In this document: piece after piece, positions 45,453-48,634 of the stretch
Numbering within the stretch: position 1 is the first letter of the stretch
How the letters are laid out: every line of letters begins with the position of its first letter
Origin: Dictyostelium discoideum
Taxonomy: Eukaryota
DNA: 64,000 bases
Assembly: GCA_000004695.1 (NCBI GenBank)
Contig: CM000151.3
Location: 7,328,001-7,392,000 of the forward strand
Direction: 5' to 3'
Position numbers and translations under genes: made by a program
The notes under the pieces: model-generated
What the model was told of the DNA's origin: nothing
Database searches by the model: none
What the model saw: only the letters and a program-made list of their open reading frames with translations

Positions 45453-46640
45453 ATGAATATTGATAAAATAAAAATATTTAAATATTTTTTTTTATTAATA
45501 TTATTATTTATTTTAATTTTTATTAATGATATTAAATTTATTGAAAGTTTAACAGGATGTGAACATTTAACATCAGATTTATGTTTAGCTGCATATCCAA
45601 TGTGTATGTCATTGATATTAACTAGTTGTTGTCCTGGACAAATTTCATTATGTTTAGATATTGATACAGTTATTAAATATTTAACAAATAAAGAATTATT
45701 TTTAAAAGCATGTTTAAGGAATTTAAATAGTGGTGTTTTGTATGAGTTATGGGGTGATATGGATCCAATACCTGGTTTTGAAATTATACCAATACCAAAT
45801 AAAACATGTTTAGATTTAGGTTGTGAAAATAAAGGTTTAGATTGTGTTTTAAAACCAGTTACAAATTGTATTTCTCCACATCAGTCTTCATGTTGTGCAT
45901 CTGAGCCAACTTGTTCTAATTTTTCAAATATAATTAATTTAAATGAACATGTTTATGGTAATGAAAATTGTGCTAATGAATGTCCAGATGGGTATCTTTG
46001 TCGTTTTGTAAATAATAGTAATTCTTGTTTACCATCATCTTGTGATTATTTAAATTGTCCAATTGGTACTGAATGTAAATTATTAAAAGGTTTAGATGTA
46101 GTAAGTTGTTTTAAAATTATTGAAATTGATAAAGGTAATTATATATTTTAATAATAATTATTATTATTATCTAAAATTAATTTTTTTTTTTTTTTTTTTT
46201 TAGGAATTGATAATAAAGATTGTAGTAATGTTGTTTGTCCAGATGGTTTTGTATGTGGTAGTGCAAGTCCAACAAATTTCTCATGTGTACCACCTATAGA
46301 TTCATTTATTTTAGATTTATTCGATTGTTCAATATGTCCAAAAAATTGGGTTTGTCACAAATATGGATGGTCTGGATTTTGTGTAGAATTTAATAAAGAT
46401 ACACCTATGATTGAAAATCCATGTATTGATGGTTCTTGTTTAGATTTTCAATTTTGTAATAAAACTTCACAAAGATGCGAATTTGAAAGATGTTCACCAA
46501 CAACATGTCACCCTCAAATGATATGTTTCCAATATCACCCATCATCACCTCGTGTTTGTACTGGTTCCGAAATTATATCTCAAATATATGCACCAATAAC
46601 ATTAGGAGAGTTTAATCCAACATTTGAAGATCTAGAATAA
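45453..46640 (+). CDS. secreted cysteine-rich protein, paralog A (signal peptide; repeated C-x-CP-x-G-x-C modules)
   Basis: Exons 45453..46134 and 46204..46640. Exon 1 ends ..IEIDK + g|gtaatt (phase 1); the intron ends ..tttttttag; exon 2 starts GA ATT GAT.. Signal peptide FFLLILLFILIFIN. Motifs: SLTGCEHLTSDLCLAAYPMCMSLILTSCCPGQ, CPDGYLC, CPDGFVC, CPKNWVC, ..CNKTSQRCEFERC.. Stop at 46638-46640. Confidence 0.7.
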
Positions 46641-47326
46641 CTTTAAAATTTATTTATTTATTTATATTATTTTTATTTATATAATAATATTAATATCTAT
46701 TATCTACTTTTTTATTTTTTTTTTTATATTCTTTTTTATTTAAATAGTATAATAAATTTTTTTTTTTTTCTTTTATAATTTAAATTACATTTTTTAAAAT
46801 TTAATTAGTATATAATAATAATAATAGTAATTTTTAAAATTTAATTAGTATATAATAATAAATAAATTAAATTAAGCGGCCAGGTCCCCATATTAAAATT
46901 TATATGGGCATGGGTTTGGGGAAATTTTTTTTTTTTTTTTTTCAAATATACCAAGATAGTTTGGGGTAGGAATAGGAGAAAAAAGTGCTTACCTTTTAAT
47001 ACCAAATAATAAAAAATTTATTTGATTGTTTGAGATTAAAAATAAAAAAATTAAAAATACAAATAAAAATTAAACACACTGGGTGTTAAAATCAAAAACA
47101 AAAAAAAAAAAAACATTATTTTACATAAACTTTATTTTTTTTTTATTTTTTTTTTTTATTTTTTTTTTTATTTTGGAAATTTTTAAAATTATTTATTAAC
47201 ACACAAACAATAAAACACACTGGGATTATCATCATTATCACTATCATTATTATTATTATTATTATTATAATTGTTTTTTTATTTATTAATAGAATTTGAC
47301 AACAATGAAAATAAAATTAAAAATAA

Positions 47327-48634
47327 ATGAATGGATTTAGAAAACTATTTCTATTATTATTTTTAATTATCAATATTATTATTAAAATAAAAATTACAAA
47401 TAGTTTAACAGGATGTGAATTATTATCACTAGATCTATGTCTATCAGCATATCCAATGTGTATGGCATTAATATTAACAAGTTGTTGTCCTGGTCAATCC
47501 CCACTATGCTTAGAAGTTGATACTGTTATTAATTATCTAACAAATAAAAAACAAAATATTCAAAATTGTCTTAGAAATTTAAATAATGGAATTTTATATG
47601 AATTATGGGGTGATATGGATGAAATTCCTGGTTATGAAATAATACCAATACCAAATATAACTTGTTTAAATTTAGGTTGTGAAAATAAAGGTAAATAAAT
47701 AAATAATAATATTAAATAAATAAATAATAAAAATAAATAAATAAATAAATAATTAATATGTTTTTTTATTTTTTTATATTTTTTTTTAAATTTAAAAGGA
47801 TTTAGTTGTAAATATCAAAGTGTTGCAAGTTGTAAAGATTCTCAATCATTATGTTGTAAACCAATACCAGTTTGTACCAATTTTACAAAGAATTTAAATG
47901 AAGTTATTAGATATGGCACAGATGATTGTTTTTTACCATGCCCTGATCAATTCATTTGTAAAACTATAAATGGTGAAATGACATGTGTACCAACCAATTG
48001 TAGTTTGATTCAATGTCCATATGGTACAACATGTTTACCATTAACAGGTTTAAATACAGTTTCATGTTATAAAACAATTGATAGTGAATTCCCACCAAAT
48101 AATGAAACATGTGAAACTGTAGGACCAGAATTTGTTTGTCCTAAAGATTTTATTTGTGGTGAAAGTCCTTATTCAAATACAACTTGTGTTCCTAACCCGT
48201 TTGATACATTGGGTAATGATTTCCTTTGTGAAGAATGTCCACCACATTGGTTATGTAGAAAATTTGGTTTCGATGGATTTTGTATTGAATTTGAAAATAA
48301 TTTCGAAAGAGAATTTGAATGTTTTGGAAGGTTTTGTTTATCCATTCAATTTTGTAATCAAACTAGTCAACAATGTGAATATGAACGTTGTACAAATACA
48401 ACTTGCGTATCTCAACAACTTTGTCTTCAAAATAGTCCAACTTCACCAAAACTTTGTATTGGTACAAATATTATCCCAGTCATCGAAACTCCAAGATCAA
48501 ATCCACCACAATCAGATCCATTCTTTGATAATAATAATAATAATAATAATAATAATAATAATAATAATAATAATAATAATAATAATAATAATAATGATAA
48601 TAATAATAATAATAATAATAATAATAAAGTTTAA
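47327..48634 (+). CDS. secreted cysteine-rich protein, paralog B (tandem duplicate of 45453..46640) with C-terminal polyN tail
   Basis: Exons 47327..47690 and 47799..48634. Exon 1 ends ..LGCENK + g|gtaaat (phase 1); the intron ends ..tttaaaag; exon 2 starts GA TTT AGT TGT.. (FSCKYQSVASCKDSQSLCCKP..). It shares with paralog A the motif SLTGCELLSLDLCLSAYPMCMALILTSCCPGQ and the ..CNQTSQQCEYERC.. module. The intron position differs from paralog A. Confidence 0.7.

Follow-up and report, generated by a model that had tools for sequence, protein, structure and literature searches.

Discordant introns in a tandem pair of old spore-coat-family genes on chromosome 2 of Dictyostelium discoideum

Introduction

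How do two neighbouring paralogs come to be split by introns at different positions? The question is raised by a stretch of 64,000 nucleotides of Dictyostelium discoideum chromosome 2 (GenBank assembly GCA_000004695.1, contig CM000151.3, positions 7,328,001 to 7,392,000 of the forward strand), hereafter the window, in which two adjacent genes, here termed A and B, encode related cysteine-rich proteins. An initial annotation of this DNA had taken them for a novel family produced by a recent local duplication and followed by intron gain or loss in one of the copies. The evidence gathered here probably calls for a different explanation, in which A and B are old genes of the spore-coat family, related to a third and unlinked paralog C as A,(B,C), their introns have undergone ordinary turnover, and their products would have, by homology, a role in a wall matrix. 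The importance of the locus beyond bookkeeping is little, and the pair is an ordinary, already catalogued one in a known dictyostelid family. What is mildly new is the A,(B,C) history, the intron that B and C have in common and a clean intron loss in DDB_G0276203, the C gene of D. discoideum.

Results and Discussion

Two intact genes with introns at different positions

The window is D. discoideum nuclear DNA, for which eukaryotic gene models with short AT-rich introns are suitable, and it is extremely AT-rich, with a GC content of 9-37% per kb. Within it, the two genes are organised as follows (positions are those of the window, and a caret marks the place of an intron):

45453..46134, forward strand: exon 1 of gene A, with the ATG at 45453, encoding the leader (residues 1 to about 31), the DSCP-N domain and cysteine modules 1-2.
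45558-45917, forward strand: DSCP-N domain of gene A (residues 36-155), PF04562, E 4.8e-17.
46135..46203, forward strand: intron of gene A, 69 nt, GTAATT..TTTTAG, phase 1, after ..EIDK^G, in the linker between cysteine modules 2 and 3.
46204..46640, forward strand: exon 2 of gene A, encoding cysteine modules 3-6 followed by a short tail, with 46640 as the last base of the stop codon.
47327..47690, forward strand: exon 1 of gene B, with the ATG at 47327, encoding the leader and most of the DSCP-N domain.
47414-47878, intron included, forward strand: DSCP-N domain of gene B, a PF04562 match.
47691..47798, forward strand: intron of gene B, 108 nt, GTAAAT..AAAAG, phase 1, after ..GCENK^G, within the DSCP-N domain.
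47799..48634, forward strand: exon 2 of gene B, encoding the end of the DSCP-N domain, the cysteine modules and the tail; the open reading frame ends at 48634.

B starts 686 bp downstream of A on the same strand, and conceptual splicing yields products of 372 amino acids for A and 399 for B. The spliced translation of A is 100% identical to a protein of D. discoideum AX4 (XP_642894.1 / EAL69029.1 / DDB_G0277055), which is titled hypothetical protein in its XP_642894.1 record and named DSCP-N domain-containing protein in UniProt. The protein collection yielded no AX4 record for B, though it contains that of A; in other D. discoideum assemblies a gene of 394-395 amino acids corresponding to B is called downstream of A. 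No family copy beyond A and B was detected by tblastn across the window, and a tRNA scan of the window found none.

Both introns are canonical GT-AG introns, and no transposon-like or duplication signature of their origin was found. The intron of A is 96% AT; an unspliced reading meets TAA TAA TAA after ..IEIDKGNYIF, and excision of 46135-46203 restores the frame into a cysteine-rich sequence homologous to B. The intron of B is 97% AT, and its excision joins ..GCENK^G to FSCKYQ... This second junction is confirmed by a spliced transcript, a 1112-nt contig assembled from run SRR24091727 (L001), which matches the window as 47310-47691 plus 47795-48508 with 99.7-99.9% identity and lacks exactly 47691-47798. 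It ends in Illumina adapter, and at the protein level it differs from the window by a single residue, V for L in ..QQLC(L/V)QNSP... Since the same contig is collinear with the genome at the place where A is split, B is continuous at the intron site of A. At the intron site of B, in turn, A reads GAA AAT AAA GGT TTA GAT TGT without a break and aligns with B residue for residue. The introns of A and B are at different, non-homologous positions, as the initial annotation had recognised.

The same annotation would have been undone if one of the copies were a pseudogene, an explanation that has next to no likelihood. The missing AX4 protein record for B speaks in its favour; against it, B has an intact open reading frame and a canonical intron, all of its 38 cysteines align with those of A, it is transcribed and spliced, and it is called as a gene in other assemblies. 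In addition, the ratios of nonsynonymous to synonymous substitution between orthologs (Nei-Gojobori) are 0.33-0.36 for A and 0.13-0.26 for B, values that indicate purifying selection on both. A and B are two intact, expressed-type D. discoideum genes.

As a side observation, an out-of-frame ATG at 47306, 21 nt 5' of the B start, opens an upstream reading frame of 11 codons that overlaps the start codon (47306-47341). The first base of the transcript contig, 47310, is located 3' of this upstream ATG.

Membership in the spore-coat superfamily

Pairwise alignment of the two products, which the initial annotation had proposed as a check, gives 52% identity over 333 amino acids (BLASTP, E 1e-114) and reproduces the N-terminal string quoted there as common to A and B. 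Beyond the leader, either protein contains 38 cysteines, which make up about 11% of the mature chain and occupy aligned positions in the two. At the DNA level, the genes share a stretch of 300 nt with 78% identity. The leaders described by that annotation as signal peptides consist of a short basic stretch followed by a 12-residue window with a mean Kyte-Doolittle hydropathy of 3.3-3.8, and, as judged by hydropathy only, they fit a signal peptide.

The further claim that the family matches no named domain does not hold. Both proteins carry the Pfam domain PF04562 (Dicty_spore_N; Dictyostelium spore coat protein, N terminus), with 63.2 bits in A (residues 36-155) and 56.4 bits in B (residues 30-148) against a gathering threshold of 22.3 bits, and each of them covers positions 2-114 of the 115 of the profile. 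The CP.G..C modules of the C-terminal part are likewise of a known kind, that of spore coat proteins and of avian CREMP, the cysteine-rich protein of eggshell membranes. A contains six four-cysteine modules (C173-C192, C197-C219, C234-C255, C269-C287, C301-C319 and C324-C346) with the spacing Cx2-4Cx5Cx6-10C, often with a CP.G..C core. A regular expression picks out five of these six modules in A and four in B; the sixth module of A (C324-C346) was read from the sequence, and the other two of B come from the alignment to A. The cysteine motif described by West for spore coat proteins is C-X4-C-X5-C-X6-10-C (PMC3068167), and the six modules of A conform to this repeat.

The resemblance to CREMP concerns the same modules. 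In the avian protein, the module is a small beta-hairpin with C1-C3/C2-C4 disulfides, similar to a truncated EGF (PMC12723725). The family profile matches the structure 9pgb, a four-module CREMP, with E values of 8e-6 and 1e-6 over two consecutive modules, and in AlphaFold2 models of A every module shows paired beta-hairpins; spacing of the Cx4Cx5Cx8C type and predicted hairpins are found together. In these models the first ~33 residues (3-33) are helical, which fits a signal peptide. The mean predicted local distance difference test score (pLDDT) of the model was 63 with an alignment of 21 sequences and 42, which is unusable, with 10 close sequences. The nominal top matches of the A model in Foldseek are EGF, follistatin and CREMP proteins. 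A and B thus share with C4C or CREMP-type proteins the Cx4Cx5Cx6-10C spacing, the frequent CP.G..C core and a predicted hairpin per module, the C4C module being as in spore coat protein SP75 and avian CREMP; in contrast to CREMP-type proteins, they have only six modules with variable linkers and not long runs of near-identical tandem copies. The resemblance to CREMP may be due to convergence or to very distant kinship.

How far the family extends was addressed by protein searches. Word-indexed searches gave the same eight close cluster representatives and nothing else, whether the query was A, B or the profile, and an exhaustive profile search of 1.84 billion representative proteins recovered only 21 relatives at E <= 1e-3. 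The ten relatives looked up by name include four proteins of Tieghemostelium lacteum, one of Acytostelium subglobosum, one of Cavenderia fasciculata and SP70 (CotB), which matched the family profile at 1e-5 in its N-domain only. All of the looked-up relatives with an organism name are dictyostelid, and three carry only EukProt gene-model names. In the literature, the family is described as combining FOLN/EGF-like with Dicty_spore_N, and genes are reported to have been gained and lost between dictyostelid groups (PMC11574339). Like the Dicty_spore_N spore coat proteins SP96/CotA, SP70/CotB and SP60/CotC, A and B have a signal-type leader directly before the DSCP-N domain and are cysteine-rich, modular, secreted-type members of a dictyostelid-restricted family. 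They differ in being shorter (372-399 amino acids) and in being assigned to the coat by homology, and their relationship to SP70 is only distant. By homology of sequence, A and B are uncharacterised members of the dictyostelid spore-coat protein superfamily, and together with C they define an uncharacterised, spore-coat-like subfamily of three members.

An old duplication with a third, unlinked paralog

The D. discoideum species group contains three paralogs of this subfamily, namely A, B and C (DDB_G0276203 in AX4), all three of which occur in D. discoideum, D. cf. discoideum, D. citrinum, D. dimigraforme and D. firmibasis. C and its orthologs have the full-length architecture and all cysteines in common with A and B, from which they are distinguished by an extra Asn/Thr-rich insertion in a linker. 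The position of C is not linked to the pair: in D. firmibasis and D. dimigraforme it shares a contig with A and B at a distance of 0.9-1.0 Mb. The tandem order of A and B and their flanking genes are kept in D. dimigraforme (L002), where A at 3192-4506 lies beside B at 5001-6308, and in D. firmibasis (L003), where A at 5001-6213 is followed by B at 6617-7919. In D. citrinum, A and B are fused by the gene models into single proteins of 720-721 amino acids (P0011 and P0013), which implies the same tandem order in this species. In a EukProt model (P0021), two family copies in tandem are attached to a kinase-like region. The three fusions look like annotation artefacts that also reveal the tandem arrangement, and public models of the A/B locus are uneven, with no AX4 protein record found for B and with A and B fused in D. 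citrinum.

The relationships among the paralogs were obtained from a neighbour-joining tree of 25 family members (334 columns, 300 bootstraps). The clade of A, B and C and the groups of A, B and C orthologs each receive 100% bootstrap, the A and B clades comprising five species each, and B groups with C to the exclusion of A in 94% of replicates. B and C are also united by common indels, for example NFxK--(N/S)(L/I)N where A has NFSNIINLN. Accordingly, the split between A and B is the oldest duplication in the clade, and not a recent one. The A/B/C clade, with its A,(B,C) topology, is specific to the D. discoideum group and predates the divergence of D. firmibasis, D. dimigraforme, D. citrinum and D. 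discoideum.

These data bear directly on the earlier proposal that a recent local tandem duplication produced a novel family, after which one of the copies gained or lost an intron. The adjacency of A and B on the same strand at 686 bp and the 300-nt stretch with 78% DNA identity would suit such an origin, which has nevertheless become very improbable: the overall identity is 51-53%, A and B have their own orthologs, which D. dimigraforme and D. firmibasis, and by implication D. citrinum, keep in the same tandem order, B is sister to the unlinked C, and the presence of PF04562 is at odds with a novel family. A and B are neither each other's closest relatives nor absent as a pair from sister species. 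Gene conversion was considered as a source of the 78%-identical stretch and rejected; KELFLKAC in all A and KKQxIQNC in all B sequences rule out a recent event of this kind. What survives of the proposal is a change in intron positions after the separation of the paralogs, and C, the third gene, belongs in the relevant comparison.

In T. lacteum, three family genes (DLAC_11652, DLAC_06444 and DLAC_06445) are clustered in the orientation -,+,- (L007:3466-7155), which means that local expansion of the family took place independently in another dictyostelid group.

Intron gain and loss in the A/B/C family

To follow the introns across the family, their positions were mapped by an exact fit of each annotated protein to genomic DNA and placed on one alignment. 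For D. discoideum DDB_G0276203, the gene structure was read from a non-AX4 assembly that encodes the identical protein. The following positions were obtained:

Column 175, phase 1: intron of B in D. discoideum, D. dimigraforme and D. firmibasis.
Column 175, phase 1: intron of C in D. dimigraforme and D. firmibasis.
No intron: C of D. discoideum, a single open reading frame of 403 codons.
Column 312, phase 1: intron of A in D. discoideum (69 nt), D. dimigraforme (196 nt) and D. firmibasis (94 nt).
No intron: DLAC_06336, DLAC_11652 and DLAC_06445 of T. lacteum.
Column 260, phase 0: intron of DLAC_06444 of T. lacteum.
Columns 164, 282 and 358, all phase 1: introns of the A. subglobosum homolog.

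The intron at column 175 has an identical nucleotide context in B and C, GAAA(A/G)(T/C)AAAG^gt..ag^GATTT. An intron common to B and C fits the tree and places it in the B/C ancestor, and B and C inherited this CE(N/S)K^G phase-1 intron from their common ancestor. In C, it measures 151 nt in D. firmibasis and 226 nt in D. dimigraforme (L004:4371-4521 and L005:4522-4747). The D. discoideum gene is uninterrupted (L006:4213-5421, GCA_054883475.1) and reads GAAAGTAAAGGATTTGATTGT across the column-175 site; the intron of C was lost by a precise and recent deletion in D. discoideum. The family therefore provides a clean, datable example of precise intron loss, and possibly one of intron gain, among very close Dictyostelium species.

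The direction of the change in A and in the B/C lineage is a different matter, since both gain and differential loss fit the data. One possibility is that independent gains took place after the group-4 duplications, at AAAG^G proto-splice sites, bringing the linker intron to the A stem and the CENK^G intron to the B/C stem. We give this history about an even chance. None of the five outgroup genes with known structure has an intron at the exact A or B/C column, which favours gain, and the introns of A and of B/C both lie in an AAAG^G context. On the other side, outgroup sampling is thin, the linker around the intron of A is not confidently alignable, and no sequence signature of origin is left, the ATTGATAA..AAG repeat next to the A intron not being conserved in D. 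dimigraforme or D. firmibasis. Reciprocal loss, with slightly less to recommend it, would require that both introns were already present before A, B and C diverged (and several in the ancestor of the family), that A lost the one at CENK^G and that the B/C ancestor lost the linker intron. This history draws strength from the A. subglobosum homolog, which has three phase-1 introns, including one in the same module 2-3 linker as that of A, an observation that keeps the loss model alive for A; moreover, the precise loss documented in D. discoideum C demonstrates that loss operates in the family. It is weakened by the absence of a split at either exact column in the outgroup genes, T. lacteum contributing three genes without an intron and a fourth with a phase-0 intron elsewhere, and by the many independent losses that it requires. 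The A. subglobosum introns themselves do not coincide with those of the D. discoideum group: that of column 164 is displaced by 11 residues upstream from the B/C site, in a region of good alignment, and that of column 282 lies 4 residues away from the A site in sequence that is not reliably alignable.

At least one of the two introns may be a lineage-specific gain within the D. discoideum group, a view with nearly even chances for which the B/C intron at CE(N/S)K^G is the best candidate, because its site is well aligned and no outgroup gene is interrupted there. If this is true, the A/B/C family records the birth and the death of a spliceosomal intron in a narrow and much-sequenced clade. As in paralogs with discordant introns in general, A and B have one phase-1 intron each at non-homologous sites; the third paralog C adds a precise deletion to this picture, and nothing in A, B or C is unusual in comparison with such paralogs. 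The discordant introns are the outcome of ordinary intron turnover in an old gene family, not of a recent event.

The exons that flank the A intron repeat each other, with ATTGATAAAG (46125-46134) before the intron and ..ATTGATAATAAAG (46206-46218) after it, in the protein IDK-G-IDNK. The ATTGATAA..AAG repeat was considered as a target-site-duplication signature and set aside, as it lacks conservation in the two other species and is so short that it may be due to chance; its probability by chance in AT-rich coding DNA is roughly 0.01-0.02, a rough estimate for a feature spotted post hoc.

The polyasparagine tail of B

The initial annotation had also credited B with the gain of a polyasparagine (polyN) tail. 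Such a tail is indeed present in B of the window and absent from A, but it is not fixed, and it varies or is absent across strains and species.

48530..48625, forward strand: (AAT)n microsatellite encoding the polyN tail of B, read from the sequence.

The C terminus of B in the window is ..DPFFD(N)22D(N)9KV, and two other D. discoideum assemblies (L010 and L011) have ..DPFDDDDDDDDSN(n)KV and ..DPFFDDIN(n)KV; in one D. discoideum assembly a run of aspartates precedes the polyN tail. In D. firmibasis (L003:7045-7919) the N run is longer still, and the B proteins of D. dimigraforme, D. citrinum and D. cf. discoideum end in ..F(F)YDINIKK(K/R)KK.. without an N run. The tail is an unstable 3' coding microsatellite and not a defining feature of B.

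Expression and proposed function

At the level of expression, the information available on this subfamily concerns mainly paralog C. Searched by gene ID, A and B are unmentioned in the literature covered; a full-text gene-ID search found C only, with its function undiscussed. In the values of Parikh 2010 given in the supplement of PMC6198379, C stands at 1.1 at 0 h and at 12.7-18.7 from 4 to 24 h. The same supplement gives 16.5 for prespore, 2.5 for prestalk and 0.2 for vegetative cells, and 1.1 for cup, 1.5 for spore and 7.7 for stalk. The expression of C is developmental and prespore-enriched in slugs, with a low level and an early onset.

On the ground of their homology, A and B are likely to be disulfide-cross-linked proteins of the spore coat or of a wall matrix. 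They would enter the endoplasmic reticulum co-translationally through the leader, fold as a DSCP-N domain that precedes a flexible string of small beta-hairpin modules stapled by disulfides, be exported after aggregation and join an extracellular wall matrix cross-linked by disulfides, the spore coat being the most probable one. It has also to be weighed whether A and B might be matrix components elsewhere, in the stalk tube, the slime sheath or the wall of cysts or macrocysts, or else factors secreted for signalling or adhesion. The start of C expression at 4 h and its maximum in the stalk among mature cell types would agree with such roles, and for some family members a role in stalks or in cyst walls is not excluded (PMC11574339). 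This alternative is a real one but the less likely, given that C is prespore-enriched in slugs (16.5 versus 2.5) and that classical coat genes, too, are higher in cup and stalk than in spores at maturity (PMC11574339).

Several points weigh against the explanation of A and B as old spore-coat-family genes with ordinary intron turnover and a wall-matrix role. As regards expression, the site, the timing and the protein destination of A and B are drawn from homology, and A was not found in the paper supplements searched, those of the life-cycle proteome included. C itself is low and is on from 4 h, earlier than classical coat genes, and in mature fruiting bodies it is higher in the stalk than in spores. 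As regards the proteins, the mucin-like Ser/Thr repeats and the tetrapeptide repeats known from SP96 and SP70 are missing from A and B; repeats of this sort, mucin-like or of short peptides in tandem, are not universal in coat proteins, and B has only its terminal polyN. The call of a signal peptide is one of hydropathy, the structure model of A is of modest confidence, and a Foldseek search of this model against the PDB gave no significant match (best E 0.25). As for the history of the genes, the tree is a neighbour-joining tree only, and the five outgroup genes fit either direction of intron change, gain or loss. Set against the Pfam domain, the aligned cysteines, the conserved synteny and the introns mapped across species, these points leave the old-family explanation a probable one.

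Upstream elements and spacers

In Dictyostelium, G/T-rich G-boxes and complementary CA-rich elements are binding sites of the G-box binding factor GBF, and G-boxes and CA-rich elements are required in the cotA, cotB and cotC promoters. The sequences upstream of A and B contain the following elements:

45260..45269, forward strand: AGGGGTGTGG island, the core of ATAGGGGTGTGGTTAATT, 193 bp upstream of the A ATG; candidate G-box-type site.
45070-45083, upstream of A: ACGTACGC(T/C)(C/T)CAAA (ACGTACGCTCCAAA), conserved in D. discoideum, D. dimigraforme and D. firmibasis.
47073..47083, forward strand: first copy of AACACACTGGG upstream of B, at -254; candidate CA-rich element.
47214..47224, forward strand: second copy of AACACACTGGG upstream of B, at -113 and 141 bp from the first.

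The ATAGGGGTGTGGTTAATT island upstream of A is kept in the AT-rich spacers of D. dimigraforme (-221) and D. firmibasis (-421), where the conserved context of AGGGGTGTGG is ATAGGGGTGTGGT(T)AATT. Paralog C has islands of the GGGGG(G)TGTGTGG type (GGGGGTGTGTGG) at -211 to -270 in three species. Upstream of B, none of 100 shuffles reached the three matches to AACACACTGGG observed at no more than one mismatch. The GGGGTGTGG-type islands and the repeated CACAC elements resemble GBF sites, and their sequence is suggestive of candidate regulatory sites.

Some minor features of these regions were also recorded. The first AACACACTGGG copy lies within a near-palindrome, AACACACTGGGTGTT, and in D. dimigraforme the region upstream of B has only CCACACACTAAGC at -93. 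The spacer between A and B contains at 46876-46921 a GC-rich island, GCGGCCAGGTCCCCATATTAAAATTTATATGGGCATGGGTTTGGGG, with the palindrome CCCATAT..ATATGGG; the corresponding spacers of D. dimigraforme and D. firmibasis showed no similar island. Finally, a long compound microsatellite, (AAATC)n turning to (AAAAC)n, extends over 44748-44925, ~530-700 bp upstream of A.

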